Shown here: positions 6,608-34,512 of the stretch, in pieces | How the letters are laid out: each line of letters begins with the position of its first letter | Position numbering within the stretch: position 1 is the stretch's first letter | Source of the DNA: a virus | DNA length: 34,512 bases | IMG/VR virus record: IMGVR_UViG_3300000956_000009 | Location: 1 to 34,512 of that record | Reading direction: 5' to 3' (one strand) | The notes under the pieces: generated by a model | Told to the model about the DNA's origin: nothing | What the model saw: only the letters and a program-made list of their open reading frames with translations | The model's database searches: none | Program-made: the position numbers and the translations under genes

Positions 6608-6645
6608 CTCAGTTTGCAAGTTTATACTTTTTGAGGGAGGTCAGC

Positions 6646-7280: not shown

Positions 7281-7286
7281 TGGGCG

Positions 7287-7803: not shown

Positions 7804-7834
7804 GGTGCAGTCCTAGCCGGACTGTGCCTTTTTT
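7804..7834 (+). terminator. Intrinsic-terminator-like hairpin with U-tract
   Basis: ggtgcagtcc / tagcc / ggactgtgcc forms a 10-bp stem with two G-U pairs, followed by tttttt. It sits 20 nt before ATG 7854. Confidence 0.4.
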
Positions 7835-7853
7835 GTGCTCTTGGAGGTTTCTA

Positions 7854-8291: not shown

Positions 8292-8300
8292 GGAGGGGCA

Positions 8301-8882: not shown

Positions 8883-8904
8883 GAATTGACGAAAGGCCAG
8901 TACG

Positions 8905-9608: not shown

Positions 9609-9612
9609 CAAG

Positions 9613-9993: not shown

Positions 9994-11596
9994 CGGATTC
10001 AAGATCGCCGATGGATACGTGGAGATTCATGGCGAGGTTGACCGCGCCTCGATCCGTCGCGCGGCTGGTGAGGCAGGCGAGGACGCCGGAAGAGAATTCT
10101 CCCGTGGTAGTGAGCGGGCCAGCCGAGGGTCGGACGCACGGCGCAGCCGGGATGGCTTTTTCCGGAACTTCTTCACGCCGGACCCTGGATTGCTCCGAGT
10201 CCTGATGTTCCCAATGGTTCGCGCATTTGCCACACCTTTGGGTCTTGCTGCTGGCATACTCGGTTTGATGTTCGTTACCTCATTGGTGGCGACCATCGTG
10301 GGCGCGCTGGCGATTGCGGCAATTCCGATTGCCTTCGCTGGTCTGGCAGCGTTCATTCTCAAAGACAATGCACTTATCAAGAAAGACTTCGAAAAGCTCA
10401 CTACCCAAATTAAGACAGGTTTGGCAACGGCCGCTGCGCCGATGATTCCGGCGTTCCGCAATGCAATCGCCATTGTGGGTCAGCTGTTCACTGAGCAACT
10501 CCAACCCAAAATTGCCAACATTTTCAAGAACATTGCCCCAACCATTGGTCCGCTGACTGCTGCACTTACTGAAACCATCAATCGATTCCTCGCCGAAATT
10601 TCCAAGGCTGTGGAATCTTCTGGCTTCAAGCAATTCATGAATGACCTGACCCTGAATTTGCCTCGACTTGGAGAGGCAATTGGTGGCTTCTTCCGCATCC
10701 TGGCCGAGAATGGGGACAGTATTGGCAAGGCTTTCGGCATTGCGGTGTCAATTCTGTCGAATTTGATTACTGTACTGGCATGGGCCATCGTCATTGCATC
10801 ATCCTGGCTCATTGGCTTTGCCGCATTGTGGCATGGAATTCAGGCAGTTACTACTGGTGCTTGGAACTTCATCGTTGCTGTTGTTATGGGTGCGGTGAAT
10901 TTCATTCGTGGATTGCTCGATGGACTCATTCGGTGGGGAATCAATACCTTTACTACCGGCTGGGCAACTATGGTGGCGATTACTCGTGGCGCAATTAGCA
11001 TGGTTTTGGGGGCTATCAACGGACTTGCTGCACTTCCTGGTCGAATCGGTGCCTATTTCCAGGGTGCGGTGTCCGCTGCTGGTGGAGCAATTGGTAACCT
11101 GGTGAGTTTGGCGGCTTCTATCCCCGGACGAATTCAAGGTGCAATTGGAAACTTGGGTGGTCTGTTGGTGAATGCCGGTCGACAGGTTGTTCAGGGTCTT
11201 ATCAACGGCATCATGGCAATGATTCCAAACGTGGCTTCGGTGGCACGGACAGTTGCGAACACCATTGCTGGCTTCCTGCCGGGTTCCCCGGTGGAAACCG
11301 GACCGCTAACCGTACTGAACCGGGGTTATGCCGGAAAGCAAATCGTCAAAATGGTAACTGACGGAATGCGCATGCAGCCAGTAGCACCAACAGTTCAGCA
11401 AGTTGTCACCCCCATTGCTCGCTCCGTGGTTGGCCAAGGTTCTGGTGGCGGCATCACTCGGGACGACATGATGGAATTTGCTCGGATTCTGCGCAACACC
11501 CCAGTGAAAACGTTCATTGGTACTCGGGAAGTTGCAACAAGTGTTTTTGAATTTGCTGCTGGTGAAGTTTCAACTCCAGGCTTGGCGGTGACGTGA
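9986..11596 (+). CDS. Tape measure protein
   Basis: 536 aa with AGGAGG upstream. Long hydrophobic Gly/Ala-rich helical segments (GAIGNLGGLLVNAGRQVVQGLINGI). Position precedes the distal tail genes. Confidence 0.85.
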   Translation: MASGFKIADGYVEIHGEVDRASIRRAAGEAGEDAGREFSRGSERASRGSDARRSRDGFFRNFFTPDPGLLRVLMFPMVRAFATPLGLAAGILGLMFVTSLVATIVGALAIAAIPIAFAGLAAFILKDNALIKKDFEKLTTQIKTGLATAAAPMIPAFRNAIAIVGQLFTEQLQPKIANIFKNIAPTIGPLTAALTETINRFLAEISKAVESSGFKQFMNDLTLNLPRLGEAIGGFFRILAENGDSIGKAFGIAVSILSNLITVLAWAIVIASSWLIGFAALWHGIQAVTTGAWNFIVAVVMGAVNFIRGLLDGLIRWGINTFTTGWATMVAITRGAISMVLGAINGLAALPGRIGAYFQGAVSAAGGAIGNLVSLAASIPGRIQGAIGNLGGLLVNAGRQVVQGLINGIMAMIPNVASVARTVANTIAGFLPGSPVETGPLTVLNRGYAGKQIVKMVTDGMRMQPVAPTVQQVVTPIARSVVGQGSGGGITRDDMMEFARILRNTPVKTFIGTREVATSVFEFAAGEVSTPGLAVT

Positions 11597-17100: not shown

Positions 17101-17257
17101 AACACGTGTCTACGAAATCCAAATCGATCGCGACGAAAACTTGAACGAACGAGTGATTATCACCGCAGCTCGGGAGAAAGTCGACCTACGAAAGGTCCTT
17201 CGGGACCAAGGACGCCGTATTTCAGACTTGTCTCGTCGGTTCCGAGCGGATGTGTGA
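14138..17257 (+). CDS. Tail tip protein: lectin-like jelly-roll modules, Gly/Tyr linker and a C-terminal Tal/hub-like domain
   Basis: 1039 aa with GGGAGG upstream. Linker GSGYGDGGYGEGGYGG at 16043..16093. The segment from about aa 680 on (RIAAGEWRIGRQIELT...AVDYKGIL...NIAWDLINDAQ) resembles siphovirus tail-tip N-terminal hub domains. Confidence 0.75.
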   Translation: MARLFTNGFEINSVTNGVDWSTHSGTPTNQTSVVRSGSRAGQINGLGSGAAKGWGHQFVATATGGPYYARAYFQYTTLPSVTTVIMALSNAITFPGLNSGDACLKLTTGGNVQLFIAGSQVGSNSTALTNGQWYMLELYVDGTPASGSRICRARIDGVEFAGTATATTFNNPRTLFVGGNVFFDASTTGVFYWDDVAVNDSTGSAQNSYPGSGKVITLFPDAAGDSNAWLNTAAGAGASTNYQLVDENPPNDATDLVQSVTANAQDLYNFGASGLGASDTINVVQVYSRHRNNTADATTSFALVIEKTAAGTKTQGSTILPNTTTWRTGSGNGTAAAEWPSLTAYLDPDGAAWTSTTIDSMQAGPKLVAAGTNRVQVSAVWVTIEYVQVPVNKNLTETLTRTDSLSVSATMELEESLSRTEYLTVEKFGGSETAPAKLHTLTDSFGGGILDSNKWTVPPGSDSPTFGTNLLVLPCTAAYTKIDSFKRYDARSSYIFIKGTPPAVGDGTREYALKLRGNGGYDANSFQFIVTGYSLLARIRRGGVASDVYGEFSSSNHKWLRLRESSGFIYFETSADGNVWNVFHQEAHLLESYVSSMVVTIECGFYGTEEASTGTLELVNLLTAITPAPGPGTSVGSGYGDGGYGEGGYGGSSGGGIVIPPPAPDIPGDITGSLRAPKLPDWRIAAGEWRIGRQIELTQAYDMTATFRLQNPHELRLKIFGGDDLQTNAIEDLITDIWIDRDGYPVGLFRVFETKDLIEPDKYGLELRAVDYKGILSRYILENETTYNDTQENIAWDLINDAQSRYGGDLGIVQGIWPATGVVRTITMKDGEQIYGNIRNMSILANGFDFDIDAQKRANLYWRERGLDRGVVLDYGGTVVEVDRHSESNNYANAIRQNGNTDLVLYLTAGDIPSRREGRWEAAYSDVNLNDSASISGAGLANLDRSSKLQPSYSMTLRPGFWKGPDHIWLGDRVTVVLKVGRLEEVVETRVYEIQIDRDENLNERVIITAAREKVDLRKVLRDQGRRISDLSRRFRADV

Positions 17258-17287: not shown

Positions 17288-17662
17288 ATGACAACTAAAG
17301 AAAAGCTTATGCTCCTGGTCGGCGGTGTGGTTTCGTTGGTTTGGGCAGCATCTCTGGTGAATGGATTTTTCAACAAGGAGTACCAGACGCCAGATATCCT
17401 GAACACAGCCATGATGGCAATTGTAGCGTTTTTGTTCACTGCGGCAATTGCCAGTCGCGGCCAGGGCGGAGGGGATCAAAATGACAATAACAGTACTGGA
17501 GACAGTTCTCCTAGGACTAATAATAGGTCTTGGGGGCTTCCTCCTGGCGATGATGCTCCGCAATCGGGAGAGGATGAAGGAAATCTCTCTTTCCAAGAAA
17601 GTCCTCACCGCTATCGTACTTTTGTTCTTCTGCGTCCAAGTTGTCTACAATTTTCGTTCTGA
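17288..17662 (+). CDS. Two-TM holin-like membrane protein with a low-complexity tail
   Basis: GAAAGG upstream. TM segments LMLLVGGVVSLVWAASLV and AMMAIVAFLFTAAIA. The 3' 182 nt overlap the next gene out of frame. Confidence 0.5.
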   Translation: MTTKEKLMLLVGGVVSLVWAASLVNGFFNKEYQTPDILNTAMMAIVAFLFTAAIASRGQGGGDQNDNNSTGDSSPRTNNRSWGLPPGDDAPQSGEDEGNLSFQESPHRYRTFVLLRPSCLQFSF

Positions 17663-17927: not shown

Positions 17928-19832
17928 ATGACATCTCCGTACATCCCAGACTTGCCAGATTATAAGCAAGAACGTTGGGATATCCAGAATAACGAGCTGT
18001 GGACAGAGGCGTTCACAAACCTCGATACTCTGAATAAGTCGGTGGCGACCCTCCAAGGTACCATCGGCCAACCAACCGTGGGTCCACCACAGAACTTGCT
18101 GGTGAACGCTCCGACGGCGACTAGCATTCGGGTGTCGATTTCGGCGCCCAACGGGGCGACCCCAGACAGCTACATCATTCGGTTTTATTCACTGCCGGAT
18201 GGCACCGTCACAGTCATCAACGACATTACGAACATTTCAGCATTCCCGTACACGATTTCCTCTGGTGTTTCGGCAAACACCACGTATCGGGTTTCGGTAA
18301 CGGCTGTTCGTAGTGGCGTCGAGAGCACGTCAGTGTCCCAGGATGTGTTGACACCACCGTCTTCACCACCTGCTTCTGGAATGCCTGTGCCGAACATTGG
18401 TGTGTGGTATCCCGGATGGGGCGAAGGCCCGGACCTTGGTGACGTTGACCCTCGGGCAACCGAGATTTCAATCTTCGCCATGGTTCCGGATGGTGGTCCG
18501 CCGGGCTCAACTGGGGCAGTTCACCTTGCATATTCTCGGCAAAGTGGCTTCAACAAGCTTTTGCAGGACGTTGCATACAAACGTTCGCTTGGCGTGAAGG
18601 TTACCTTGACGCTGGGCGGCGCTGGGTCGTTCACTCGGCTGGACACCGCTGGTCGAGTAACAGCATGTTTCAACTCCATTGTGAACATCATCGATAACGA
18701 CTTCGGTGGTGCCATTGATGGGTTCTGCTGGAACATGGAGTACAACGGCACAACCCAGCTCATCTACGAAACGTATGCTGTATCTCTGATGCAGCAGCTC
18801 AAGGACTACTACGGCGAGAACTTCTTCATCACCTTCCCACCAGCGCCGTGGAAGTATGGGGCTTTCCCGTACTACGACGACGGTGACCTGGCGGAAGACA
18901 TGTTCGCCGCAGGTGTCATCGACGGCATTTACCCGCAATTCTATGACCAAACAGACTTGACTACTCAGCAAGCCAGAATTAATAATGCACTAACCGAAAT
19001 GCCGGTGTGGGCCGGATTCGTTGACGATGACTGGTCAAAGGTCGGTCCAGCATTCCAGGTGAATGCTACCGGACAGGCTAATGGTAGCCAGGCAGCGCCC
19101 ATGAGCTATGCCAGTGCGAAAACTGTCTGGGATACGCTTAAAGCAGCACACAGCGATATCGCTGGGTTCTTTGTCTGGAACTCTGGACAAAACCTCAGTG
19201 CGTTCCTGGATGTTATCTACGGTTCAGTCATCGACGATGGCGGTGCTGCACCAGCATTGTCAACGTTGACCGACGACTTCGGTTCCGAAGACACCGCAAA
19301 ATGGAGTGGATACACCTCAGGAGCTTCGGTTTCCGGTGGTGAGTTGAAGCTTCCGGCAACTTCATACTCTGCCACTGCAAATGCAATCCTGAGCGTTAAT
19401 GCTTACGATGCTCGTGCGGCGTCCGTTACCGTCCGAGTCAATGGTCTTATCACTGCTGGTACGGAATGCTACTTCACATTTGGTTTGCAAAGTGCAACAG
19501 ATCCAAGCAAATTCGTGCAGTGGCGTATCTATCAGATCCCTGGTAGCAACACCATTGAGACAAACATGGTCAACGGAACGGCGTTTTACCAGGGTATTGA
19601 CACATACAACTCGACAAACGACAAATACTTCCGGATGCGGGTCGATGGTGGAAACTGGCTGTGGGAAACCGCACCAGACTCCGCTGGTGTACCTGGATCG
19701 TGGACTACCCGTCGCACGCTCGCGCTGACAAACTTCTTCGATCTGTCCAATGTGCGTGTCTCACTTCGGGCAGAAGGGGAGGAAGCGGGCAACGGCGACT
19801 ACGACGTTGACAAGTTCAACATCGTGAGCTAG
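17928..19832 (+). CDS. FN3 + GH18-like (class III chitinase/lysozyme-like) + lectin-like module protein; candidate lysin or glycan depolymerase
   Basis: AAAGGAGGG upstream. FN3-like region at aa 52-142. GH18-like strands IGVWYPGWG, VKVTLTLGGAGS, IDGFCWNMEY, IYPQFYD and AGFFVWNSGQN. The C-terminal module is homologous to aa 437-622 of the tail tip protein. Confidence 0.7.
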   Translation: MTSPYIPDLPDYKQERWDIQNNELWTEAFTNLDTLNKSVATLQGTIGQPTVGPPQNLLVNAPTATSIRVSISAPNGATPDSYIIRFYSLPDGTVTVINDITNISAFPYTISSGVSANTTYRVSVTAVRSGVESTSVSQDVLTPPSSPPASGMPVPNIGVWYPGWGEGPDLGDVDPRATEISIFAMVPDGGPPGSTGAVHLAYSRQSGFNKLLQDVAYKRSLGVKVTLTLGGAGSFTRLDTAGRVTACFNSIVNIIDNDFGGAIDGFCWNMEYNGTTQLIYETYAVSLMQQLKDYYGENFFITFPPAPWKYGAFPYYDDGDLAEDMFAAGVIDGIYPQFYDQTDLTTQQARINNALTEMPVWAGFVDDDWSKVGPAFQVNATGQANGSQAAPMSYASAKTVWDTLKAAHSDIAGFFVWNSGQNLSAFLDVIYGSVIDDGGAAPALSTLTDDFGSEDTAKWSGYTSGASVSGGELKLPATSYSATANAILSVNAYDARAASVTVRVNGLITAGTECYFTFGLQSATDPSKFVQWRIYQIPGSNTIETNMVNGTAFYQGIDTYNSTNDKYFRMRVDGGNWLWETAPDSAGVPGSWTTRRTLALTNFFDLSNVRVSLRAEGEEAGNGDYDVDKFNIVS

Positions 19833-19910: not shown

Positions 19911-20480
19911 TTACCACGCCTTACCAAGGCCCGAAGTGTGCCATGGGTGCTGGGAATAATGCCAGGTCAGCTCGGCGGTGCCAGCAAACTTGATGTTCCG
20001 ATCCCGGCAGTCCAGAATGAACCGCCAATCTTCTTGCGGAAGTGTCCATCCCTCTGGGTGATCGGTGCGGAATCTGATTTCTTTGGCGATTTTAGCAGTT
20101 ACGCATACAGTCATTGTGGTGTGGTGCGGTTCGGTTGGATCGAAAACCCGACCCCTGTGTTGTGGAAATGGGTTATTCCCATCGAACCAGGAGTAGGTGA
20201 AGTCTGCGTTGTGCGCTACCCGAAGCTTGTGGTGAACTTCCAAGTGATTCGGGTAGAAGTAGTCGTCGTCATCGAGAAATGCTACGAAGTCGATGTCGTC
20301 GGATACCTTGGCGAGAAGTCGGTTTCTTGTTTCGGCCGCCCCATGGTGCTTGTCATCGATCTCAATGAGCACTTCGTGGGGCGGAAGTGTCTGAGTTAGT
20401 GCAGATTTTACCGCTCGTTCCAGGAACTTGGCTCGTGGTGGAATCGACGGAATCAAAACCGCAATCTTTGGTTTGTCCAT
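19911..20480 (-). CDS. Glycosyltransferase family 2 (GT-A), paralog 2
   Basis: IAVLIPSIPPRAKFLERAVKSALTQT...GAAETRNR...AFLDDDD (DxD). TAAATG junction with the upstream paralog. Confidence 0.8.
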   Translation of the reverse strand: MDKPKIAVLIPSIPPRAKFLERAVKSALTQTLPPHEVLIEIDDKHHGAAETRNRLLAKVSDDIDFVAFLDDDDYFYPNHLEVHHKLRVAHNADFTYSWFDGNNPFPQHRGRVFDPTEPHHTTMTVCVTAKIAKEIRFRTDHPEGWTLPQEDWRFILDCRDRNIKFAGTAELTWHYSQHPWHTSGLGKAW

Positions 20481-21125
20481 TTAGATCACCAGGGGCTTTC
20501 CACCTGTGTTGGAATCGTGGAAATTGTAGAGCCAAGTACGCTGTGGTACGTGATGGAACTTTGCTCCAGCATCGAGCATCTTGAGCAGCAACCCGTAGTC
20601 CTCGCAATCGCCAGAATTGTTTCCTGGCGGCAATGCGAATGAGCCCTGTTCTGGAAAGCCACCGACTTCCTTGACTAACGATGTCCGACACACGTGAGTT
20701 ACTGGGATAAAGTTACCCTTGTTGCGAAACCACCATTCCTGTTCCGGACCAAACGGCACGCCGAATGGAATCACCACCTGACCGTTTTGCAACGTTGCCA
20801 GTGGATCTTTGCCGTTGGAGAACAACGGGTACGGATAGACTAGATCAGCACCAGTTTCTTCCAGTGCTTGAATGCAAATCTGTAGGTGATCTGGTTTCAG
20901 TAGGTCATCGTCGTCCAGAAATGCGGTCCATGTAGTGTCAATGGACTGGATAATTCGGTTGCGTGTTTTTGCTGCACCTTCTCGTTCGTTGTCAACTGCA
21001 ACCAGAATCGCTTCCGGCATGTGCTCCTGGTTGGCTGCGCTGAACACTGCCTTGCTCAGGAAATGTGCTCGCTCGGGAATTGTTGGAATTGCAACAGTAA
21101 CATCGGAGAGAAAGTTAGTCATCAT
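20481..21125 (-). CDS. Glycosyltransferase family 2 (GT-A), paralog 1
   Basis: VTVAIPTIPERAHFLSKAVFSAANQE...GAAKTRNR...AFLDDDD. Its start overlaps the methyltransferase stop by 11 nt. Confidence 0.8.
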   Translation of the reverse strand: MMTNFLSDVTVAIPTIPERAHFLSKAVFSAANQEHMPEAILVAVDNEREGAAKTRNRIIQSIDTTWTAFLDDDDLLKPDHLQICIQALEETGADLVYPYPLFSNGKDPLATLQNGQVVIPFGVPFGPEQEWWFRNKGNFIPVTHVCRTSLVKEVGGFPEQGSFALPPGNNSGDCEDYGLLLKMLDAGAKFHHVPQRTWLYNFHDSNTGGKPLVI

Positions 21126-22299
21126 AACCTACAATTTCGACCTTTGGAATCGGGAAGATCATCTTACCGCCATTTTTAAGGTATTCTTGTTCACGAGCAA
21201 CGAACTGGTCCTTGAACCACCAGGGGCCAACCAGGAGGCAGTCCGGTGGGTTTGCGCGCATGTCGTCTTCGGAAATGATCTCAGCGTTGATCGCGGACAT
21301 CTTCTTACCGACTTTTTCTGGATTGCGATCTACGACATAGTCAAATTCGAGGTTTGCCGCTTGCCAAATGGTACCGCCCCGAGTTGATGCACCGTAGACG
21401 TAGATGGTCTTGCCATGTTCGCGGAGGAAGTTTACTTTGTAGGTCAGGTCAGCGAGCAGCTTTTTGGTGTTTGTCCGAAACCATTGCAGCTTTCCGGACT
21501 TGAAGAACTCTTCCTCGCGTTGCAATAGCTTGTCCACATTTGGCGAAACGAAGCGCGTCTGAGCGTGGGAAATAACCACCCGGAACACTCCACCGTTGAC
21601 CGGTCCCAGGGTCACGTCGTTGACCTCAAGGCCGTGCGCGTGCAGCAGGTTGACCAGCGTGGTGAGGCAGAAATAGGTGACGTGCTCGTGGCTGATGTTA
21701 TCGAAGGAGTTCGATTCGATCATCGTCAATAGGTAGTTTTGCTGGACAATCCAGATGCCGTCATCGGCAAGGACTTTTTTCACTCCAGCGACAAACGCGT
21801 TTGGATCATCGAGATCGTAGAACATTGAGATTGAGGTAATGATGTCAAACTTGGTGGCGAAGTAGTGTGGTGCGAAGAAGTCCGAGATGATTTGGTTTGC
21901 GTGTTGTGCAGCTTCCGGCGCAAACTGACGGAGTGGATCAATACCGATTCGATAAATGTGCTTTGGAACAAACGATAGTAGTGTGCCATCATTCGAGGCG
22001 ATGTCCAGCCAGTTTTTGGCATTCCAATGAATTGCCAACGCATCGTGGACAATGGATTCTAGGTCGTCCTTGATGGCCGGATTGACCCCAGACTTGAAGC
22101 TGTAGTTCTCGTGGTACATTTCTGATGGCGGTGCTGATTCGGAAAGCTGAGCAAGCGCACACTGCTTGCAAAACAGCAGATGTAGCGGATACTTCGCAGG
22201 CTTTGCATCGTCGTCGCGGAAATCGGACAGGTATTGGTCACCTAGATCGAGCACCGATTCCAGCTCGTCCCAGCCACAATTGCGGCAATACTCGATCAC
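21115..22299 (-). CDS. SAM-dependent C-methyltransferase-type enzyme with N-terminal zinc ribbon (NDP-hexose C-methyltransferase-like family)
   Basis: GTG start. CRNCGWDELESVLDLGDQYLSDF...CKQCALAQL zinc-ribbon pattern. SAM motif WLDIASNDGTLL. Length of 394 aa is consistent with the three-domain architecture. Confidence 0.75.
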   Translation of the reverse strand: MIEYCRNCGWDELESVLDLGDQYLSDFRDDDAKPAKYPLHLLFCKQCALAQLSESAPPSEMYHENYSFKSGVNPAIKDDLESIVHDALAIHWNAKNWLDIASNDGTLLSFVPKHIYRIGIDPLRQFAPEAAQHANQIISDFFAPHYFATKFDIITSISMFYDLDDPNAFVAGVKKVLADDGIWIVQQNYLLTMIESNSFDNISHEHVTYFCLTTLVNLLHAHGLEVNDVTLGPVNGGVFRVVISHAQTRFVSPNVDKLLQREEEFFKSGKLQWFRTNTKKLLADLTYKVNFLREHGKTIYVYGASTRGGTIWQAANLEFDYVVDRNPEKVGKKMSAINAEIISEDDMRANPPDCLLVGPWWFKDQFVAREQEYLKNGGKMIFPIPKVEIVGYDD

Positions 22300-23261
22300 T
22301 TCTTTACCTTCCGCTTATCTGCGCGATTCGGCTGGAGGTACTCACGCTTTGCCGGTGGTTTGAGTTCCTTCCGCCAGTAGTCCAGTGTGTCTACCAGGGT
22401 TTGCTCAAGTGGAATTTCTGGCTTCCAACCGGTAATGGTGTGGAACTTCTCACAACTTGGCTCAGGCAGCCGTTCTGGACCAGTCTGATAGCCGAGTCGG
22501 TACAGCCCAGGATCAGACTTCACCTTAATCTCGGCGGTTGCCTTGCTAATGAGCAGATCTAGAACCTCTTGCATTCGTACTGAGTTTGGCGAGCAGAGGT
22601 TATAGATGCCAGATTCCAGATAAATCGCACGCTCATAGGCCCGAACGATGTCTCGCACATCAGTATAATTTCGCATTGCTCGAAGATCTCCGTGCTCGAC
22701 ATACTCTCGCTCACCGAGTTCGCATTCCACGATCTTCTTGGCAAATGACGGAATGGCATACACTGAGGCATGACCGGGTCCTGTGTGGTTGAATGCCCGA
22801 GTTACCACAACATTGATCTTGTGCAGTTTCGCGTAGACAAGACCAAGCTGACCGGCAGCCAGCTTGGAAACACCGTACGGCGTATCTGGTGTAGGAACGG
22901 TTTCTTCGGTAATGAGATCAGACGTTGCATAGCCGTACTCTGCTGATGTTCCAGCAAGCATGACGCGAGCCCGATTACCGGTGTTCTTTACCGATTCCAG
23001 CACGTTGAAGGTACCGATGGTGTTGACTTCCAGTGCCCGACGCGGGTCGGTCGTACCTTCCGGGACAAATGCTTGGGCAGCTAGGTGGAAAATAAGATCT
23101 GGGTTGACCTGCTCGACATAGCTACGAATCTGCTCGTAGTCGCGAATGTCCGCACGCTGCTGGATGTCGAAACCATGCACTCGATATCCACAACGGTACA
23201 GGTACGGGACAAGATGCTTACCGACAAAGCCTAGATGTCCGGTAACCAGTACATCTTTCAT
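22296..23261 (-). CDS. Extended short-chain dehydrogenase/reductase: NDP-sugar epimerase/dehydratase/reductase
   Basis: Rossmann motif VTGHLGFVG, catalytic GTSAEYG...YGVSKLA (YxxxK) and RAFNHTGPG. GTGA overlap with the next gene. Confidence 0.8.
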   Translation of the reverse strand: MKDVLVTGHLGFVGKHLVPYLYRCGYRVHGFDIQQRADIRDYEQIRSYVEQVNPDLIFHLAAQAFVPEGTTDPRRALEVNTIGTFNVLESVKNTGNRARVMLAGTSAEYGYATSDLITEETVPTPDTPYGVSKLAAGQLGLVYAKLHKINVVVTRAFNHTGPGHASVYAIPSFAKKIVECELGEREYVEHGDLRAMRNYTDVRDIVRAYERAIYLESGIYNLCSPNSVRMQEVLDLLISKATAEIKVKSDPGLYRLGYQTGPERLPEPSCEKFHTITGWKPEIPLEQTLVDTLDYWRKELKPPAKREYLQPNRADKRKVKK

Positions 23262-23980
23262 GCCTTTGCCTTTCCGAGCTGGTACTCCGCAATCTTACGG
23301 ATGAGTTTCTTCGCATCCGCCTCACGTTCGTGCGCTGTCTCAAGGAACTTTTGTCCGGGGTTTTGTGTTGCTTGCAGCGCAAAACGTTCCTCGTAGGTGG
23401 AATCCCACACAGCCTTTGCCGCTGCTGGGTGCATGTGCTCAGTGTAAAGTTCTGGAATGAAGTGGAATCGACCGATTCGCCGAGCTACATCGACCAACCA
23501 GGTGTCTGCGTAGTCACCAGCAAAGTACTCTGGAACAAAGTAGTTGGTGGTTTCCATCCAGGTACGGTGAATAAACGGGTGCGTCGCGTGGTTGGCATCG
23601 TGTAGTCCGTCTCGGCCATACACCAGGACGATATTGTCTGGGTATTGGGCGAAAGCATCCGCAACGAGGTCGTTCCAGCCAGAAGTTCGGTACACCACAT
23701 CGTCATCGGAAAGTCCTAGCACGTCGCCAGAAGCTTTCTTTGCACAGAAATTGTGCATCATCGCGATGTTCCGGTTGCGGTCACCACGGACGCCGGTCAC
23801 CTGAGCACCGAAAGCACGGCGCAAATCAGTAACGGTGTTCAGCGTCTCCTCGTCGTCATTGTCTACGAAGAAGACGATTTCGGTCTCGTGGTTTGACGAA
23901 GCGTTGTGCAGGACCGATTCGGTCATCCGGACAACGTTCCGTGGCCGACCACGAGTGGGGCAAAGCAGGCTAATCTTCAT
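23258..23980 (-). CDS. GT-A fold glycosyltransferase
   Basis: ISLLCPTRGRP...IVFFVDNDD...GLSDDD (DxD). ATGA overlap downstream and TAATG overlap upstream. Confidence 0.65.
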   Translation of the reverse strand: MKISLLCPTRGRPRNVVRMTESVLHNASSNHETEIVFFVDNDDEETLNTVTDLRRAFGAQVTGVRGDRNRNIAMMHNFCAKKASGDVLGLSDDDVVYRTSGWNDLVADAFAQYPDNIVLVYGRDGLHDANHATHPFIHRTWMETTNYFVPEYFAGDYADTWLVDVARRIGRFHFIPELYTEHMHPAAAKAVWDSTYEERFALQATQNPGQKFLETAHEREADAKKLIRKIAEYQLGKAKA

Positions 23981-25026
23981 TACTTATCCAACCCATAGGC
24001 GTCGATGTACTTGGTGTAGTGCTCCTGAATGGTGAACTTCTTGGCGTATTCCTTCGCCTTCGCACCCATCTCCTTCCGCATATCCGCATCGTTGATGAGA
24101 TCACGCATATACTTGGTGAATTGGTATGGTTGGTTGAAGAGGAAGCCGGTCTCACCGTGCTGCACAAAGTCTCGATATGGTCCAACGTTCGAAGCTACAC
24201 ATGGGATACCGAATGCGGCGTATTCCAGTGCTTTGATGTAAGATTTCGATTGGTTGAACTTGGTGTCTAGTAGTGGCGCAATACCAATATCGAAGCCAAA
24301 GGTCTTGAAGTAGTCACCTTCGATGATGTTCTGGAATGGAAGGTGCACACTCTTGACGAAATTGTTCTCATACAAGTGACCCATAAACAGGAACCAGGCC
24401 GGATCATTTTGGACGAGTAGTTGGGCCATTTCGTTTTGGATGGTGTTAAAGTCTGCTCGGTGGGTCAGCGAACCGGTGTAACCGATAATGATGGACTTTT
24501 CCCGATCGATGTCCGAGCCAAAATCGATTTCTGCTGGCGTGTCCATCACGGTTGCGTCAATGTAGTTCGGAATTACCACAATGTTGTCATTGTAAGGCCG
24601 AAGCACTTCGGCTAGCGGGTCAGTTGAAACGGTAACGAGGTCAGCAGCCTTGACGTTTTCGATGATGTTGTTTTGGATTTCCGGGTGGGTGAAATAGTGG
24701 TAGACGTTTTGATCGTCCTTGTCCCGGTCAATGCTGAGGAAATCGTCATCGATTTCGTAGACAAGGAGCTTGTTGTGCTTCTTCTGCCGCTTGAGCCAAG
24801 CAAGTCGTTGCCATCCAGTAGATGGGTCTAGCTTGCATGTACGTTGTGCCACCACAACATCCGCTGAATCGACGTAGCCAGACCAGTTCACGTCGCCAGC
24901 AACTTGGTATCCATGATTGGATAGTTCCGCATATGGGTTGACAATGCGGTAATAACCACAACCCATCATGTCAGCCATCCAGCCGAAAACCCGCTTGGGC
25001 ATATATCCTCCAATGCAAACACGCAT
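23980..25026 (-). CDS. Glycosyltransferase group 1 (GT4, GT-B fold)
   Basis: C-terminal signature KALEYAAFGIPCVASNVGPYRDFVQHGETGFLF. 348 aa. Confidence 0.8.
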   Translation of the reverse strand: MRVCIGGYMPKRVFGWMADMMGCGYYRIVNPYAELSNHGYQVAGDVNWSGYVDSADVVVAQRTCKLDPSTGWQRLAWLKRQKKHNKLLVYEIDDDFLSIDRDKDDQNVYHYFTHPEIQNNIIENVKAADLVTVSTDPLAEVLRPYNDNIVVIPNYIDATVMDTPAEIDFGSDIDREKSIIIGYTGSLTHRADFNTIQNEMAQLLVQNDPAWFLFMGHLYENNFVKSVHLPFQNIIEGDYFKTFGFDIGIAPLLDTKFNQSKSYIKALEYAAFGIPCVASNVGPYRDFVQHGETGFLFNQPYQFTKYMRDLINDADMRKEMGAKAKEYAKKFTIQEHYTKYIDAYGLDK

Positions 25027-25047
25027 AGCCCCTCCGGAGAGGGGCTA
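25026..25047 (-). promoter_or_regulatory. 9-bp stem-loop enclosing the Shine-Dalgarno sequence and start codon of the GT4 gene
   Basis: On the minus strand, tagcccctc / tccg / gaggggcta runs straight into tg of the ATG, and GGAGGGG is base-paired in the stem. Confidence 0.45.
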
Positions 25048-25053
25048 CACAAA

Positions 25054-25245
25054 TTACTCTTCGCCAAGTAGTGCGCGTGGACTCTTCAAGTCAATGAAGA
25101 TCTTCTCATAACCACGCTTTGTCGGGTGTCCGATAAGCTTGGCTACTGGTTGTCCGATTCCCACAATCTCGAATTCGTATCCATTTCCAGACAGGAAGTT
25201 GAACGACTCGATGAGTGTGGTTACGACTTTGTCAACCTCAGACAT
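25054..25245 (-). CDS. Hypothetical small protein (63 aa)
   Basis: GAAAGG lies 6 nt upstream of the ATG. The ORF is co-oriented inside the glycan operon. Confidence 0.55.
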   Translation of the reverse strand: MSEVDKVVTTLIESFNFLSGNGYEFEIVGIGQPVAKLIGHPTKRGYEKIFIDLKSPRALLGEE

Positions 25246-25297
25246 GCTGGCCTTTCAGTTACAGATAACTTTAGTCACACAGATGTGACCGAGTCGG

Positions 25298-25471
25298 TTA
25301 CAGATTTTCGTCATGTTTGAGGATTTCGTCTTCTGTTGTGAAGACTCTACGTGTTCCTTCAACTTCGTTTCCATATTCATCTAAATCCCAAGATGTCGCT
25401 ACTACTTCTACTTGCTCAGTAATTTCAGATTTGAATGACACAAACTCTGCATGACGAACTCCTGTGTTCAT
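25298..25471 (-). CDS. Hypothetical small acidic protein (57 aa; below the ORF-track cutoff)
   Basis: ATGA start/stop overlap with the synthase gene. Hand translation: MNTGVRHAEFVSFKSEITEQVEVVATSWDLDEYGNEVEGTRRVFTTEDEILKHDENL. Confidence 0.45.
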   Translation of the reverse strand: MNTGVRHAEFVSFKSEITEQVEVVATSWDLDEYGNEVEGTRRVFTTEDEILKHDENL

Positions 25472-26841
25472 GCCCCTACCTCAACTACTTTCCTGGTAGA
25501 CCAGCCGGTTTTGAGACAGGTGAACATTCCCACATATCGTAGGAACCAACCGATATAGAGGTTCAATGTTGACGATAGTGGAGCTAGCAGGTAAATAACG
25601 AAACGCTGTCGTGCACTGGTTGTCGGCAGTACTGCGGTCAGGTATGGCAAGGACACCACATAGGAAAGTCCAACAATCCATACCCAGAACATCCAGGGGA
25701 CTGACAGGTTGGTAATAGGGCCGACCAGGAGAGCAAGCGGGATTACTGCGGTGTAGAACACGAAACTCAGGAACTGCCAGAAGGTCAGCCACCAAATTGG
25801 GCTACGGATAGAAAATGTTCGCATCAGCCATAGGTTTCCCCAAAACCAGGAACGGTGCCACCGAACTCGTTGCTTTCGTAGGTGGCTCATGTTCTCCGGG
25901 TGTAGGGTGTACCCGTGTGCAGAGCGTTGGAAAAGTGTCTTTCCTTCTAGCAGGCAATATCGAGTCATCATTGCATCGTCGCCATAGCTCATCCGGCGAC
26001 CGAAAATCTTATGTGTCATGTAGTGGTGTCGGTATTTGCGCCAAACAAACGCTCGATAGAATGCGAGTCCACCGGTGTTCACGCCAACTGAGTTGAGCAT
26101 GGCGTACGATGCTCGACCGTTCAGGAACGAACAGATGAAGGAAATCTCAATCAGTCTGGTCAGCAAGTTTTTGCTGTGGTTTTTGCCTGTCAGGAAACCG
26201 CAGACTGACATAACTTTGCGATCTGCAAATGGTTTTAGCCCATTTTCGTAGCAGTGTTCGTCTGCAAGCTCCACGTCAGAATCGACCGTGGCAATGTAGT
26301 CAGCACCCGGGCAAGCGTCCACAGCGAGCATCTGGGCGGCTCGTTTGTCGCCCTGTGGGTTGAAGGAGTACGCGATGTTCGGGGTGATGGTCCGGTACCG
26401 ACCAACGTATCGATGATCTTGGATGGTAACGGTGCGCTCTGCATACTCCTGAACAATTTCAGCCAGTTTCGGAACGTAGCCTGGGTTTCCATTTTCTACC
26501 ACATGAATTTTGTTTGATTGCCGAGTCTGTCTGATGATGGAATCCAGACATGCTCGGAACATCGTTTCGTCTTCATTGTGTGCTGGAATCACGGTAAGCA
26601 GATACCGTGAATCGTTAATGAGCGACTTTTGGAGTGGTGTGATGTTGCTTTTGTCTCGGTGGAAATGTGGGGCAATTGCGGTAAGCACTAATGCCAGGAA
26701 GGATAGTAGCATTACCACGCGGAGATTGTGGAAGTGATTTTCTAAAATTTCGTTATAGTGGTAATATGCAAGGGCACATGCTGCGCCTATCGCCAGAGTG
26801 GTGACAAGCGCAGCAAGCCTTGACCGATTTTGGTAATTCAC
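25468..26841 (-). CDS. Integral-membrane processive GT2 polysaccharide synthase (NodC / hyaluronan synthase / chitin synthase-like)
   Basis: GTG start. Motifs in family order: VIPAHNED, GDKRAAQ, VDSDV (26275..26286), NTGGLAFYR, GDDAMMT and QRVRW (25858..25872). Two N-terminal and several C-terminal TM segments. Confidence 0.85.
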   Translation of the reverse strand: MNYQNRSRLAALVTTLAIGAACALAYYHYNEILENHFHNLRVVMLLSFLALVLTAIAPHFHRDKSNITPLQKSLINDSRYLLTVIPAHNEDETMFRACLDSIIRQTRQSNKIHVVENGNPGYVPKLAEIVQEYAERTVTIQDHRYVGRYRTITPNIAYSFNPQGDKRAAQMLAVDACPGADYIATVDSDVELADEHCYENGLKPFADRKVMSVCGFLTGKNHSKNLLTRLIEISFICSFLNGRASYAMLNSVGVNTGGLAFYRAFVWRKYRHHYMTHKIFGRRMSYGDDAMMTRYCLLEGKTLFQRSAHGYTLHPENMSHLRKQRVRWHRSWFWGNLWLMRTFSIRSPIWWLTFWQFLSFVFYTAVIPLALLVGPITNLSVPWMFWVWIVGLSYVVSLPYLTAVLPTTSARQRFVIYLLAPLSSTLNLYIGWFLRYVGMFTCLKTGWSTRKVVEVGA

Positions 26842-27002
26842 TGCGCTGCAATCTTCTTCCGTCGCCCTGAGATCCGCAGAACGATGCCGATTGCCAGAAG
26901 TCCAAGTCCCACACTGAGGACCAGCACAGGAGCGGCAATCACAGCCCCACCAATACCGATGGTAGCGAATGCACTCGTAACTGGAAGACCGTAGTTACCC
27001 AT
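26838..27002 (-). CDS. Small membrane protein (54 aa) translationally coupled to the synthase
   Basis: MGNYGLPVTSAFATIGIGGAVIAAPVLVLSVGLGLLAIGIVLRISGRRKKIAAQ. TAATG overlap upstream and GTGA overlap with the synthase start. The ORF track extends to 27062. Confidence 0.55.
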   Translation of the reverse strand: MGNYGLPVTSAFATIGIGGAVIAAPVLVLSVGLGLLAIGIVLRISGRRKKIAAQ

Positions 27003-27499
27003 TACTTCTTTTTCCTCCGATGCGATTTTACGAAGCAGTGTTCTTTGTGCGCAAATGCCCAATCAACCGACATCATGATGGTGCTGTTTGGATCTGCCCA
27101 GTCAGGTTGAACCTGAACGAGTTCTTCACAAACTAGACACTTTACGTCGATGGTTTTTGCTGCCATCGAGCCAACATCTGCTTCAAACTGGCCTTTGATG
27201 TGCTTATTCTGTTTGAAGAACTTATCGATCATCTCGGTCAGACACCACTTTGCGAAGCGGAATGCCTGGTCGACTTGTAGGTAGAGGGTAATTTCATCCT
27301 CGGTTGCGACACCTGACTTGACGATGGTCTCCCAAGGAGTACCTTCGGGGATTTTTAGGTTTTCGAATTTCCCGTAGATTTCCGAAACCTCAGGAATCTT
27401 TTCCCGAATTTCTTCCATGACTTCGACAAAATTCTCGAAGACCCGAGCGTAGTATGTCTCATCATCGACGGAGTCAGATCTCCTCCAAGGCTTCCACAT
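27002..27499 (-). CDS. Hypothetical protein (165 aa) with C-terminal CxxC...HxxxC motif
   Basis: ATG 27499 is preceded by AAGGAGG. The ORF track begins at 27577. Confidence 0.6.
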   Translation of the reverse strand: MWKPWRRSDSVDDETYYARVFENFVEVMEEIREKIPEVSEIYGKFENLKIPEGTPWETIVKSGVATEDEITLYLQVDQAFRFAKWCLTEMIDKFFKQNKHIKGQFEADVGSMAAKTIDVKCLVCEELVQVQPDWADPNSTIMMSVDWAFAHKEHCFVKSHRRKKK

Positions 27500-28073
27500 C
27501 CTGTGCCTCCTTAAATCTTTTGTATCGCTCGGCGGCAGCAATGTGGAATGCCCGCATGAAGTTTTCGATAAACTCATGATCGTGGCAGTCGCTGGCTTTT
27601 ACGTCAGGCAGGATATACGGTTGTGTTCCAGACTGCGCAATGTATTCGAGGAATTCCGGGTCTGTAATTTCAGTTGTTACTAAATCAGCAAGCTCAATAA
27701 ATTTGTGTGCGGCTTCTCTGTGTTCTGGCGTTTGCCAAGTTTTATCTGGATCGTCTGGATGTTCAACACCAGGAACAAATGCAACATGCACAACATCAAC
27801 GATGATAACTGGTCCAGGTGTATCTTTGTTGAGTTCACGTAGGCTTGTGAACCATTTTACAATATTTGGATTCATGGGGAGAGTAACGATCCACAAATTT
27901 GCAGCAAAGCCCTCGGCATCGGCAAGTTTGTACGAGGATCTTATCTCCGCGAGTCCTCCACCTTGACTGAATATGTCCACAAGAGTGTTAAAGCCACGAA
28001 GTTCGTTTTGCTCTTCCACGCCATTGTGGAGAATAAACACTTTGAAAAGTGTTGGAAGTCCTTCATCAACCAT
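27474..28073 (-). CDS. Hypothetical protein (199 aa)
   Basis: Long ORF co-oriented in the operon. No family recognised. Confidence 0.6.
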   Translation of the reverse strand: MVDEGLPTLFKVFILHNGVEEQNELRGFNTLVDIFSQGGGLAEIRSSYKLADAEGFAANLWIVTLPMNPNIVKWFTSLRELNKDTPGPVIIVDVVHVAFVPGVEHPDDPDKTWQTPEHREAAHKFIELADLVTTEITDPEFLEYIAQSGTQPYILPDVKASDCHDHEFIENFMRAFHIAAAERYKRFKEAQDVEALEEI

Positions 28074-28076
28074 TCG

Positions 28077-28481
28077 TTATTCCGAGTTCTCTGGGTGCAG
28101 CCAATCAGACCACTCGCCAGTACCAGACTGACGCCACCGAACAAGGGCTTCTGCAGTGTTCGCCAGGTTCTGTGCGAACTCTTCTGGATCTGCTACCCGA
28201 AGCGAAGTGGTGACTGTCTTGTTGCCGACTTCGTCTTCGGTTTCAAAGCTGTAGGTGTACGAGAACTTGTGGTTTTTTGCGGTCATATCGTCTTGATAGG
28301 TGGATGGCACCATCAGGTTAAGAATATTTTGTACGGCGGATCGAGTTGGAAAGGCACGAACCGAAGAAACCGGTGCGTCTGGATCGACACGTTGCACGTC
28401 AGCCAAGAACTGTGCTTTCTCGGCTTCCTTGTCGATCTCAGTGTCTTTACTCTGGACAACTAAGCGCGTCCACTGGGGCAT
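28077..28481 (-). CDS. Hypothetical protein (134 aa)
   Basis: ATG 28481 follows AAGAGG. The ORF track begins at 28538. Confidence 0.55.
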   Translation of the reverse strand: MPQWTRLVVQSKDTEIDKEAEKAQFLADVQRVDPDAPVSSVRAFPTRSAVQNILNLMVPSTYQDDMTAKNHKFSYTYSFETEDEVGNKTVTTSLRVADPEEFAQNLANTAEALVRWRQSGTGEWSDWLHPENSE

Positions 28482-28492
28482 GGAATTACCTC

Positions 28493-28582
28493 TTAACCAA
28501 ATGCACGCACGAGCGCGGCTACCAGAACAACAAAACACATAATTAGTGTTCCGGCGGGAACGAGAAACTTGGCAGTCAACAT
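28493..28582 (-). CDS. Candidate 29-aa hydrophobic micro-protein
   Basis: Hand translation MLTAKFLVPAGTLIMCFVVLVAALVRAFG. GAAAGG upstream. The stop lies 12 nt before the next start. Confidence 0.3.
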   Translation of the reverse strand: MLTAKFLVPAGTLIMCFVVLVAALVRAFG

Positions 28583-28633
28583 CTCACTGGCCTTTCGAGA
28601 TGGAAACAGGAATGGAGTTGTCAACCTACGGTA

Positions 28634-28738
28634 CTACGTTATTACTTGCCAAAGGTATATGATACATAAGGCTGCGATGGTGAGATCGAGTAGAATGTCG
28701 ATAATGATCGAGTTAGCGAGCTTCTGCTTGAGGTTCAT
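28634..28738 (-). CDS. Candidate 34-aa hydrophobic micro-protein
   Basis: Hand translation MNLKQKLANSIIIDILLDLTIAALCIIYLWQVIT. Overlaps the end of the upstream gene. Confidence 0.25.
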   Translation of the reverse strand: MNLKQKLANSIIIDILLDLTIAALCIIYLWQVIT

Positions 28739-28973
28739 TGAAAAACCGTTCCATGAGTTTTATTTGGTATGAAGTACGGCGCTGATCGCAGTCGGGGCAC
28801 ATGTTCCAGTCCCAGTCAGTGCGTTGTGCCCATCTAAGTTCGCTGTTGTGGTAATTGATGAACTTTGCTATTTCTTCGACTTGGTTTGGTAGCGTGATGT
28901 AAACGTCGCAGTAATCATGAACCAGGTACTTCTGTCCCATGTGTGTCCGGACGTGGTAATCTTGATCGGCCAT
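28713..28973 (-). CDS. Hypothetical protein (86 aa)
   Basis: ORF co-oriented in the operon, containing a CPDC motif. No family recognised. Confidence 0.5.
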   Translation of the reverse strand: MADQDYHVRTHMGQKYLVHDYCDVYITLPNQVEEIAKFINYHNSELRWAQRTDWDWNMCPDCDQRRTSYQIKLMERFFNEPQAEAR

Positions 28974-29142
28974 CTCTGATAATCACGAGTTCCTCTCGGT
29001 CCAAGCCGTCCGCGATATAGTTACGGACGACGTCGCTAAACGAGATATTTTTGAACTCCGCGATGGCTTCTACTCTTTTAACGGTAACCTCGTCAAACTT
29101 TATGGACTTGTTAACTCCTAGAATTTTTAGTGGCTTCGCCAT
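28915..29142 (-). CDS. Ribbon-helix-helix (CopG/Arc-like) DNA-binding protein
   Basis: ATG 29142 follows GAAGAGGGG. MAKPLKILGVNKSIKFDEVTVKRVEAIAEFKNISFSDVVRNYIADGL fits a beta-strand, helix, helix pattern. First gene after the promoter. Confidence 0.6.
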   Translation of the reverse strand: MAKPLKILGVNKSIKFDEVTVKRVEAIAEFKNISFSDVVRNYIADGLDREELVIIRDGRSRLPRPDTHGTEVPGS

Positions 29143-32803: not shown

Positions 32804-33382
32804 TTAGGCTCCCTGCTTCTTGAGCAAACTGTAGGTCGCGTTGATCGACCCGTTCGTGCTCATGAGCACCGCATCGAAATTGTTTTTTGGTGTGTTCATC
32901 CAAGATGGCATGATTCCGGTGTTTTGTTCAGTTTTGTTGGACAGAACCTTGTACCGGCCTGCGCACGAACCAGAAGTAATGAGTACTTCTTTGTTCTGTG
33001 GCAGTGAACCTAGGTTCTGCCATCCTTTGTTTGCGTGGCCGACCAGGAGACAAGTGGGCTGGTTGAGGTATGTGACGACTTTGCCCTTGTCAATGGTTTC
33101 CTGACCGTAGAAGTCATCTACTGGGTGCAGTAGGATGACTGGGTCTTTTGCGGTTGTGCCCTTCTTTGCCGCAGACTGTGCGGTTCCGTCGCCACCACCA
33201 ACTGGGAATGGGTCTGGCAGATCCTGGAAGTTTGTGCGTGAGTTGTATGGTTCTGGAGTTTGCACTGAAACGGCAGAAGTTGAGGAAACCGTTGTAGAAG
33301 GTGCCATAACCGTGTTTCCCAGGTAACTCATGACTCCGAGTCCGGCCACTGCCAGGACTGCGGTGATCGCTGCTCGCCTCAT
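32804..33382 (-). CDS. Secreted or membrane-anchored protein with sortase-like motif order
   Basis: ATG 33382 gives the signal/anchor sequence MRRAAITAVLAVAGLGVMS. LLVGHANKGW...VLITSGS..GRYKV...AVLMSTNG resembles a sortase layout but lacks the TLxTC cysteine. The ORF track begins at TTG 33418. Confidence 0.55.
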   Translation of the reverse strand: MRRAAITAVLAVAGLGVMSYLGNTVMAPSTTVSSTSAVSVQTPEPYNSRTNFQDLPDPFPVGGGDGTAQSAAKKGTTAKDPVILLHPVDDFYGQETIDKGKVVTYLNQPTCLLVGHANKGWQNLGSLPQNKEVLITSGSCAGRYKVLSNKTEQNTGIMPSWMNTPKNNFDAVLMSTNGSINATYSLLKKQGA

Positions 33383-33389
33383 GCCAGGA

Positions 33390-33418
33390 ACTCTACAGGA
33401 GTTGCTGAGACTTGGCAA
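33390..33418 (-). promoter_or_regulatory. Sigma-70-like promoter TTGCCA-17-TAGAGT, probably producing a leaderless mRNA
   Basis: The minus strand reads TTGCCAagtctcagcaactcctgTAGAGTtcctggcATG. The -10 element ends 7 nt before the ATG and there is no SD sequence. Confidence 0.5.
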
Positions 33419-34454: not shown

Positions 34455-34512
34455 GTGAGTTTCGTAATCAAGCAGGACCTGACAATTGCCGAGATTCCGC
34501 GAGAACAGATCA
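34455..34512 (+). CDS. 5' part of the junction-spanning small ORF (continues at base 51, ends 163)
   Basis: GTG start after GGCGGAG. The frame is continuous through the 50-bp terminal repeat. Confidence 0.5.
   Translation, partial: MSFVIKQDLTIAEIPREQI
34463..34512. repeat. Terminal direct repeat, copy 2 (identical to 1..50)
   Basis: Exact 50-bp match to the window start. Confidence 0.95.

Follow-up and report, generated by a model that had tools for sequence, protein, structure and literature searches.

What does a bacteriophage gain from a gene for a membrane-bound glycan synthase, and which glycan would such an enzyme make? This question is raised by the IMG/VR virus record IMGVR_UViG_3300000956_000009, which was analyzed over its whole length of 34,512 nucleotides (here called the window). 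A gene on its minus strand (25468..26841) encodes a membrane-integrated family 2 glycosyltransferase (GT2) of 457 amino acids (aa), which starts with GTG and shows a class I hyaluronan synthase (HAS)-like fold. A first-pass annotation had described it as a processive enzyme resembling NodC, hyaluronan synthase and chitin synthase. The synthase gene is preceded by a gene for a mini-protein of 54 aa (26838..27002, minus strand). On balance, we lean towards the view that in this two-gene cassette a processive GT2 and a mini-protein subunit build an exported surface glycan on the infected actinobacterial cell.

Motifs, topology and relatives of the synthase

The six motifs quoted in the first-pass annotation are all present in the 457-aa open reading frame (ORF) and follow each other as claimed: VIPAHNED (position 84), GDKRAAQ (164), VDSDV (186), GGLAFYR (257), GDDAMMT (287) and QRVRW (324). 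A further motif, absent from that annotation, is GWSTRK, which is located seven residues before the C-terminus. The key sites of the enzyme are DxD (187-189), GDD (287-289), QRVRW (324-328) and the gating-loop-like GWSTRK (446-451). Among 49 homologues, the residues K166, D187, S188, D189, D288, D289, Q324, R327, W328, W447 and R450 are invariant. This conservation of catalytic residues across the family argues for an active enzyme.

Hydropathy analysis revealed two N-terminal membrane segments (7-28 and 36-62) and a hydrophobic C-terminal block (349-407). An AlphaFold model of the synthase was built from the 49 homologues (pLDDT 89.6, pTM 0.90). It contains helices at 6-33, 39-60, 348-378, 383-402 and 420-440, with the GT-A domain in between. 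The motifs are flanked by membrane bundles, as had been proposed, namely by two N-terminal and three C-terminal membrane helices.

The motif pattern is not a product of chance. The synthase matches the Pfam GT2 family with E 3e-13 and the NCBIfam model for NodC (TIGR04242) with 88.2 bits over model positions 50-394 of 395. Its best solved relative found by single sequence is the Chlorella virus hyaluronan synthase (CvHAS; E 2e-12). GKR, DSD, GDD and QxxRW align residue for residue between the two enzymes, QRVRW being aligned to Q338-W342 of CvHAS. A family profile was built from the 49 homologues and searched against solved structures. It matched CvHAS with E 2.6e-39 over chain residues 35-458, including the membrane helices, followed by Xenopus HAS1 (XlHAS1; E 6e-31), the solved chitin synthases (E 3.5e-7) and BcsA (E 1e-4). 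In a Foldseek search of the model against the PDB, the 13 best matches were CvHAS and XlHAS1 (TM-score 0.59-0.69, 429-495 alignment columns), and BcsA and chitin synthases formed the second tier. In the viral structure library BFVD, full-length matches came from giant viruses only, and phage entries reached a TM-score of at most 0.39.

Because of the profile match to CvHAS and the structural matches headed by HAS, the synthase is assigned to the membrane-integrated, channel-type GT2 enzymes. As modelled, it has the architecture of a class I hyaluronan synthase with a cytoplasmic GT-A domain, interface helices and membrane helices at both the N- and the C-terminus. The first-pass annotation had named, among others, two observations that would speak against a processive enzyme, a placement among non-processive GT2 enzymes and a QRVRW match outside its expected structural position. 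Neither was made: the profile and Foldseek ranks are led by HAS, and QRVRW opens a long interface helix (318-342) in the model, as it does in HAS.

The synthase departs from the named families

Class I HAS share the motifs DxDT, GDDR and GLYG and a gating loop of the form WGTSGRK/R or WGTRG (PMC11750622). The phage synthase reads DSDV at the first of these motifs; V or I is found at this position in its own clade, here called the target clade, and T in the sister clade. At the second motif it reads GDDA; 20 of 21 close homologues have A here, and R is confined to the clade with DSDT. GLYG is absent from the sequence. In the gating-loop region, the residue following W447 is Ser (S in 26 and G in 15 of the 49 homologues). 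The gating-loop mutant G455A of CvHAS is inactive (PMC11750622). Bacterial and eukaryotic HAS alike keep Arg348 of CvHAS (PMC12987647); the aligned position is Trp334 in the synthase and W in 40 of the 49 homologues.

Positions 190 and 290 covary in the family. In the target clade, V or I at the first position is combined with A at the second; the sister clade, which keeps the canonical motifs, combines T with R. This pair may determine specificity. We read the target clade as a putative derived active-site variant. Distant members of the family predominantly show S or T at both positions.

For chitin synthases, neither PF01644 (Chitin_synth_1) nor PF03142 (Chitin_synth_2) matched the synthase at E ≤0.01. 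PF03142 appears in the precomputed Pfam list of some distant relatives and is faintly matched by one of them (P0085). Many proteins of the family are labelled "hyaluronan synthase" by the JGI pipeline, a name which the family has not earned. Judged by its sequence, the synthase is not a canonical HAS, NodC or chitin synthase and belongs to a distinct clade of the HAS/NodC/chitin-synthase group. The earlier description therefore stands as far as a membrane-embedded GT2 of that kind is concerned, but no single family name can be kept, because the defining motifs fail.

NodC of rhizobia (TIGR04242) is the best curated bacterial family for the synthase. Both enzymes are similar in size and share the catalytic D, DD and QxxRW as well as the motif GKRxAQ. 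A NodC-like synthase would make short chito-oligosaccharides of set length as signals or primers, and no exported polymer. Nearly the whole NodC model is covered by the match, which reaches up to 138 bits in relatives, and the length of 457 aa and the W..TR at the extreme C-terminus agree with small bacterial enzymes. However, 88.2 bits are far below the family cut-off of 550. In NodC, Arg242 of the EDR motif is essential, the enzyme has three membrane helices and a closed product pocket, and its missing helices are held to preclude a channel (PMC4132801). In contrast, the phage synthase reads GDDA and lacks the Arg of (E/D)DR, and its model shows five membrane helices, to which the helix of the partner protein is added. 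Furthermore, its full-length structural matches are polymer-forming HAS, its family is distributed over actinobacteria and phages, and a nod gene context is missing. Oligosaccharide synthesis of the NodC type is conceivable, but we consider it rather unlikely.

A mini-protein with a sortase-type motif is encoded upstream

The mini-protein (MGNYGLPVTSAFATIGIGGAVIAAPVLVLSVGLGLLAIGIVLRISGRRKKIAAQ) begins with MGNYGLPVTS and ends with RRKK. A short N-terminus containing Y-G leads into an LPxT[G/S] motif, which is followed by about 30 hydrophobic residues and a basic tail. The start codon ATG of the mini-protein, located downstream of GGAGG, shares bases with the stop codon of the preceding ORF (TAATG), and its stop codon TGA overlaps the GTG of the synthase by 4 nt (GTGA). 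As read from this arrangement, the mini-protein and the synthase are translationally coupled.

The aligned mini-protein family shows, in this order, M-(x)-Y-G, L-[P/A]-x-T-G, GG, a hydrophobic stretch of helix length, a conserved Arg and a basic tail. L[PA]xTG occurs within the first 30 residues in 39 of 52 distinct mini-proteins, compared to a mean of 0.7 and a maximum of 5 in 2000 shuffles. Twelve different pentapeptides were found, which vary mainly at x. Since the sequences are related, this statistic measures selection on the motif and does not count independent occurrences.

In the sorting signal of sortase substrates, a pentapeptide precedes a hydrophobic segment and a cluster of basic residues; LAXTG is the class E form, used by soil actinobacteria such as Streptomyces (PMC5148588). 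In Actinoplanes, too, SrtE is the functional sortase (PMC13251363). LAxTG was found in the Streptomyces-type copies of the mini-protein (loci L003, L006, L007, L015, L016 and L019), and LPxTG in the copies of Actinoplanes, Paractinoplanes and Dactylosporangium. At the level of sequence, this distribution fits the sortase classes. The mini-protein resembles a sorting signal in its pentapeptide, hydrophobic segment and basic tail, and in the window about 30 residues lead from the motif to the basic RISGRRKK, which agrees with the hydrophobic and basic parts of such a signal. Unlike sortase substrates and the members of NF058583, it has neither a signal peptide nor a passenger domain: only 5 residues precede the motif in the window, and 3 to 23 in the relatives. 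The NCBIfam model NF058583 ("LAXTG motif-containing small protein") was a recurrent weak top match, found for 7 of 13 small proteins with 9.5-16.8 bits against a cut-off of 65, and the mini-protein of the window did not match it. Membership in the LPXTG/LAXTG models of NCBIfam was rejected, as every score is far under the cut-off.

A profile of the mini-protein found 33 database proteins, all of them unnamed, and many (15 counted) are apparently located on contigs with synthase hits, as judged by identical lengths of the longest contig. One subgroup on phage contigs (L008, L036; P0102, P0107, P0108, P0115, P0128 and P0131) starts with MYDKDVCKAGVGFCLVVGGTVITGWW. It has two conserved Cys, no LPXTG and a tail which is acidic instead of basic. 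P0107 alone was seen on 23 contigs.

Tiny membrane proteins which are encoded beside a membrane GT2 synthase and are inherited together with it are known from IcaD with IcaA and PgaD with PgaC. By analogy, we infer that the mini-protein is an accessory subunit of the synthase. In contrast to IcaD and PgaD, it is encoded upstream, is single-pass and carries a sortase-type motif, and the comparison is one of architecture and not of sequence.

The two genes are inherited as a cassette

A comparable small membrane ORF is located upstream of the synthase in 28 of the 30 loci with enough upstream sequence. The two genes overlap by 4 nt in L001, L002 and the Streptomyces phage Kromp, and by 11 nt in L006. 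When 35 ORFs of the window were compared by tblastn to a set of the other loci, only the synthase and the mini-protein were shared, the sole exception being L017, to which the NDP-sugar dehydratase had a weak match (25% identity). The two genes are therefore inherited together as one unit, a cassette that recurs in phages, in prophage-like elements and in chromosomes of actinomycetes which otherwise show no relationship to each other.

The sole clear relative of the synthase in 50,697 phage records is gp79 of Kromp (32% identity), which is annotated as "glycosyltransferase". This cultured phage carries the cassette as gp78-gp79. A strict pattern scan revealed 3 contigs in IMG/VR, 15 contigs in metagenomes and 9 cases in 185,579 species genomes. 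The latter were all actinomycetes (Dactylosporangium, Actinoplanes, Paractinoplanes, Streptomyces, Nonomuraea and Peterkaempfera). A scan of viral contigs with the single synthase sequence returned only a fragment of 33 residues, and PHROGs holds no family for the synthase or its small neighbours. The synthase family is rare, and the pairing of the two genes is unnamed in the databases used.

Clear phage contexts of the cassette are L001, with tape measure, Dit and holins, and L036. It was also found in an integrase-bearing element (L002) and in a similar island of a Streptomyces chromosome (L007). The chromosomal cassettes L005 (Dactylosporangium) and L006 (Streptomyces) are located in an ordinary neighbourhood. 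In L001, L002, L036 and Kromp, the cassette stands alone, without sugar-nucleotide genes or another glycosyltransferase. The donor should therefore be a common UDP-sugar of the host.

Two loci are described here in more detail. In L005 (Dactylosporangium fulvum), the mini-protein is unannotated in the record, and a CBM2-fn3-GH18 protein (6272-7861, a faint Pfam match) is encoded about 2 kb upstream of the cassette. L035 contains, in the region 8001-10529, a distant homologue of the synthase (P0091, 31% identity) without a separate mini-protein. Downstream of it, a GH26-like hydrolase and a Laminin_G_3/He_PIG surface protein are encoded, and the region resembles a cellular exopolysaccharide operon.

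The phage genome and its GH18-like protein

Bases 1-50 of the window are an exact repeat of 34463-34512. The genome is therefore closed (circular or circularly permuted) with a size of about 34,462 bp (~34.46 kb). Its plus arm encodes the large terminase, portal, scaffold, adaptor, tail terminator, major tail protein, tape measure and Dit, and its minus arm a primase-like protein and an AAA_25 (RecA/DnaB-type) ATPase. Terminase, portal, tape measure and Dit confirm that the synthase gene lies in a bacteriophage, as had been stated before. The large terminase is 38-40% identical to terminases of Streptomyces and Microbacterium phages. No megablast match to the region 23000-29000 was found among the 50,697 phage records, which hold no near-identical phage. 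The G+C content of the window is about 51%, which is unusually low compared to the actinobacteriophages in whose company it falls, and no tRNA genes were found in it. The window represents a new siphovirus with an actinobacterial host. The synthase cassette sits in the leftward replication-and-accessory arm, outside the late virion genes. No UDP-glucose dehydrogenase was found among the ORFs of the window that were scanned.

The first-pass annotation had connected the synthase to a chitinase-like protein of glycoside hydrolase family 18 (GH18) on the other arm and to duplicated lectin-like modules. In this circuit the synthase would coat the cell with a glycan, which the duplicated modules would bind and the GH18-like enzyme would cut. 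The protein in question has 634 aa (17928..19832, plus strand) and consists of an fn3 domain, a GH18-like domain (140-450) and a C-terminal module. The protein itself has no GH18 match in Pfam. An exhaustive search with the domain 140-450 revealed 172 remote homologues, and 25 of 41 aligned homologues match PF00704; LysM, CBM5/12 or chitin-binding modules occur in many of these homologues. In the PDB, the 50 best matches of its AlphaFold model (pLDDT 88.4) are all GH18 chitinases or GH18-like proteins (TM-score 0.55-0.70), and the (beta/alpha)8 fold of GH18 is present. The GH18-like assignment thus stands for the fold, but not for the catalytic motif: DxxDxDxE is degenerate and reads DGFCWNME in the window, whereas most homologues have DGLDWNxFE and a few DGIDFDIE. 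Close relatives were not found, as a word-indexed search returned only the protein itself.

For the claim of duplicated modules, the support is weak. A module of about 145 aa is shared by the GH18-like protein (residues 441-584) and the 1039-aa tail protein encoded at 14138-17257 on the plus strand (residues 434-576). The two copies are 28% identical (E 0.009), and each of them matches phrog_14065. The lectin label is unproven, since the module has no match to a lectin family or any other Pfam family.

The real GH18 fold, the chitin-binding modules of its homologues, the module common to two tail-region proteins and the GH18 chitinase (faint Pfam match) 2 kb from the Dactylosporangium cassette would all suit a circuit around one glycan. 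Against it, tblastn found no match to the GH18-like protein in the cassette loci compared, and the protein has no close relative and carries the degenerate motif. Its gene is located at the end of the tail module, directly after a gene for a two-helix membrane protein of 124 aa (17288..17662, plus strand; phrog_11800, "membrane protein"), where a lysin or wall depolymerase is expected. GH18-like folds also include the peptidoglycan hydrolases Cwp19 and SleL as well as hevamine, which are among the structural neighbours of the model. The idea that the phage makes, binds and cuts one glycan is therefore unsupported and improbable. A lysin or a tail-associated wall hydrolase is as likely as anything for the GH18-like protein. 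The products of 17288-17662 and 17928-19832 could be a holin and its lysin and not parts of the tail. Apart from a "peptidase" PHROG match at 32804-33418, no further endolysin was recognized in the genome.

Neighbouring genes and a separate glycosylation cassette

An ORF of up to 191 aa (27002..27577, minus strand) precedes the mini-protein gene, whose start is overlapped by the stop codon of this ORF. The ORF matches no family and lacks conservation in the other loci. The same is true for an ORF of 63 aa (25054..25245, minus strand) between the synthase and a terminator-like hairpin, and it is uncertain whether this ORF belongs to the synthase unit. The hairpin (25022..25051, minus strand) has 13 pairs, 7 of them G-C, followed by a T-rich tail. 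It separates the synthase unit from a downstream cassette of soluble glycosyltransferases.

All genes of this downstream cassette are located on the minus strand. They encode a GT4 glycosyltransferase (23980-25026; phrog_7162), a GT2 (23258-23980), an NDP-sugar 4,6-dehydratase or epimerase (22296-23261), an NDP-hexose C-methyltransferase with a zinc-binding N-terminus (21115-22299) and two short GT2 ORFs (20481-21125 and 19911-20480). The hairpin overlaps the first listed ATG of the GT4 ORF (MRVCIGG...), and the true GT4 probably starts further downstream, with MPKRVFGW. The closest relatives of GT4 are gp6 of KimJongPhill and gp5 of Zuko, two Streptomyces phages (34-36% identity). These actinobacteriophage glycosyltransferases are soluble, in contrast to the membrane-bound synthase. 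The product of the soluble cassette (19911..25026) is probably a glycan with a C-methylated deoxy-sugar, attached to virions or wall polymers. It looks like a separate glycosylation system outside the synthase unit. A membership of the synthase in it was rejected, because other loci have only the two-gene module in common with the window and the hairpin intervenes.

A non-processive membrane GT2 (GtrB or a polyprenyl-phosphate-sugar synthase) that feeds the soluble cassette for virion or wall glycosylation would suit the adjoining genes on the same strand, which comprise four to five glycosyltransferase ORFs (three to four GT2, one of them a possible fragment, and one GT4), the C-methyltransferase and the NDP-sugar 4,6-dehydratase, and polyprenyl-phosphate transferases are among the weak PDB matches; it was rejected on fold and motifs as very improbable, since QxxRW, the interface helices and the W..TR loop characterize channel-forming synthases, the polyprenyl- and dolichol-phosphate transferases of the PDB search (ArnC, the sll0501 GT2 and Dpm) reach no better than E 1.8e-4 to 6e-3 with the profile and only over the N-terminal GT-A part, and the cassette occurs in L001, L002, L036 and Kromp without another glycosyltransferase and is separated here from the soluble genes by the hairpin.

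Proposed role of the cassette

We return to the view that the cassette builds an exported surface glycan. The synthase would take a UDP-sugar of the host, most plausibly UDP-N-acetylglucosamine (UDP-GlcNAc), alone or together with a second sugar. It would build a beta-linked glycan and push it through its own membrane channel. The exported glycan may then coat or remodel the surface of the infected cell, as the HAS and chitin synthases of chloroviruses do. A GlcNAc-containing beta-glycan is our tentative candidate for the product, and hyaluronan appears doubtful; the rest of our expectation falls on something else.

The mini-protein would serve the synthase as a membrane subunit, with the N-terminus facing outwards and the basic tail inwards. 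An outer N-terminus follows from the positive-inside rule and places the motif where sortase acts. In this orientation, its topology would also allow it to pack against the synthase, the first helix of which begins on the cytoplasmic side. The external L[P/A]xTG could tie the complex or its product to the sortase and cell-wall machinery of the host. It is a more distant prospect, and an unlikely one, that the mini-protein is a true sortase substrate, which is cleaved at L[P/A]xT|G on the external side of the membrane and couples the glycan synthase, encoded by phage or host, to the wall by tethering or licensing. Such a cut would either tether the nascent glycan or a peptide handle to peptidoglycan, or switch on the synthase near lipid II and sortase.

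The location in the replication and accessory arm, upstream of the hairpin, suggests by the chlorovirus analogy that the glycan would be made before lysis. Early remodelling of the infected cell surface is the most likely role on this analogy. The phage might benefit from receptor masking, either by exclusion of other phages or because its progeny would be spared adsorption to infected cells and debris. We hold receptor masking or superinfection exclusion as a purpose with low confidence.

Several points weigh against this view of the cassette. The target clade replaces residues which are conserved or essential in its relatives (GDDR to GDDA, WGTRG to GWSTR and Arg348 to Trp), and therefore the donor, the acceptor or even the processivity may differ. 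The mini-protein of the window reads LPVTS and not LPVTG, with Ser at P1'. The motif is missing in 13 of 52 mini-proteins, including the widespread "MYDKDVCKAG" phage group, so that an involvement of sortase cannot be universal. P0089 and P0091 have an extra N-terminal helix and a basic stretch of about mini-protein size, but the hidden Markov model of the mini-protein does not match them. A fusion of the mini-protein to these synthases was therefore rejected and is an architectural hint only. Finally, the early role on the cell surface is purely a matter of inference.

Comparison with known systems and significance

The nearest known counterparts are found in chloroviruses. Their HAS and chitin synthase (CHS) are expressed early, within minutes, and cover the host cell with fibres, the purpose of which is still unknown (PMC9614988). 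Like the chlorovirus HAS (PBCV-1 A98R, CvHAS; PDB 7SP6), the synthase described here is encoded by a virus and shows the full-length GT2 fold with DxD, GDD and QxxRW. The two enzymes differ in several respects. The host of the phage enzyme is a bacterium and not an alga, its length is 457 aa compared to 570, and the identity is about 17%. DSDT, GDDR and WGTRG of the chlorovirus enzyme are replaced by DSDV, GDDA and GWSTR, and the phage enzyme is accompanied by the mini-protein. The phage also lacks a virus-encoded pathway for UDP-glucuronic acid or glucosamine-6-phosphate, in contrast to the chloroviruses.

In the literature searched, no HAS- or NodC-like synthase of a bacteriophage and no LPXTG mini-protein with a GT2 was found, although this does not prove that none has been described; PMC5122149 and PMC13118837 concern other genes. 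What is new here is a phage counterpart of the surface-glycan synthases of chloroviruses, with a putative derived active-site variant and an obligatory mini-protein which carries a bare sortase-type signal. Virus-encoded synthases that polymerise and export a glycan have so far been a curiosity of the giant viruses of algae (PMC9614988). The compact phage version, available in Kromp (gp78-gp79) and in metagenomic actinophages, is a tractable system to ask why a lytic virus coats a doomed cell. The covarying residues near DxD and GDD (T/R to V/A) may mean a different polymer and may help to explain sugar specificity. The mini-protein, if it is functional, would join sortase biology to synthase-dependent polysaccharide secretion, two fields between which no link was found in the literature searched. 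If it should prove to be a sortase substrate, the cassette would represent an unknown mobile route for anchoring or licensing polysaccharide in Gram-positive walls, which is exploited by phages to re-coat their hosts.

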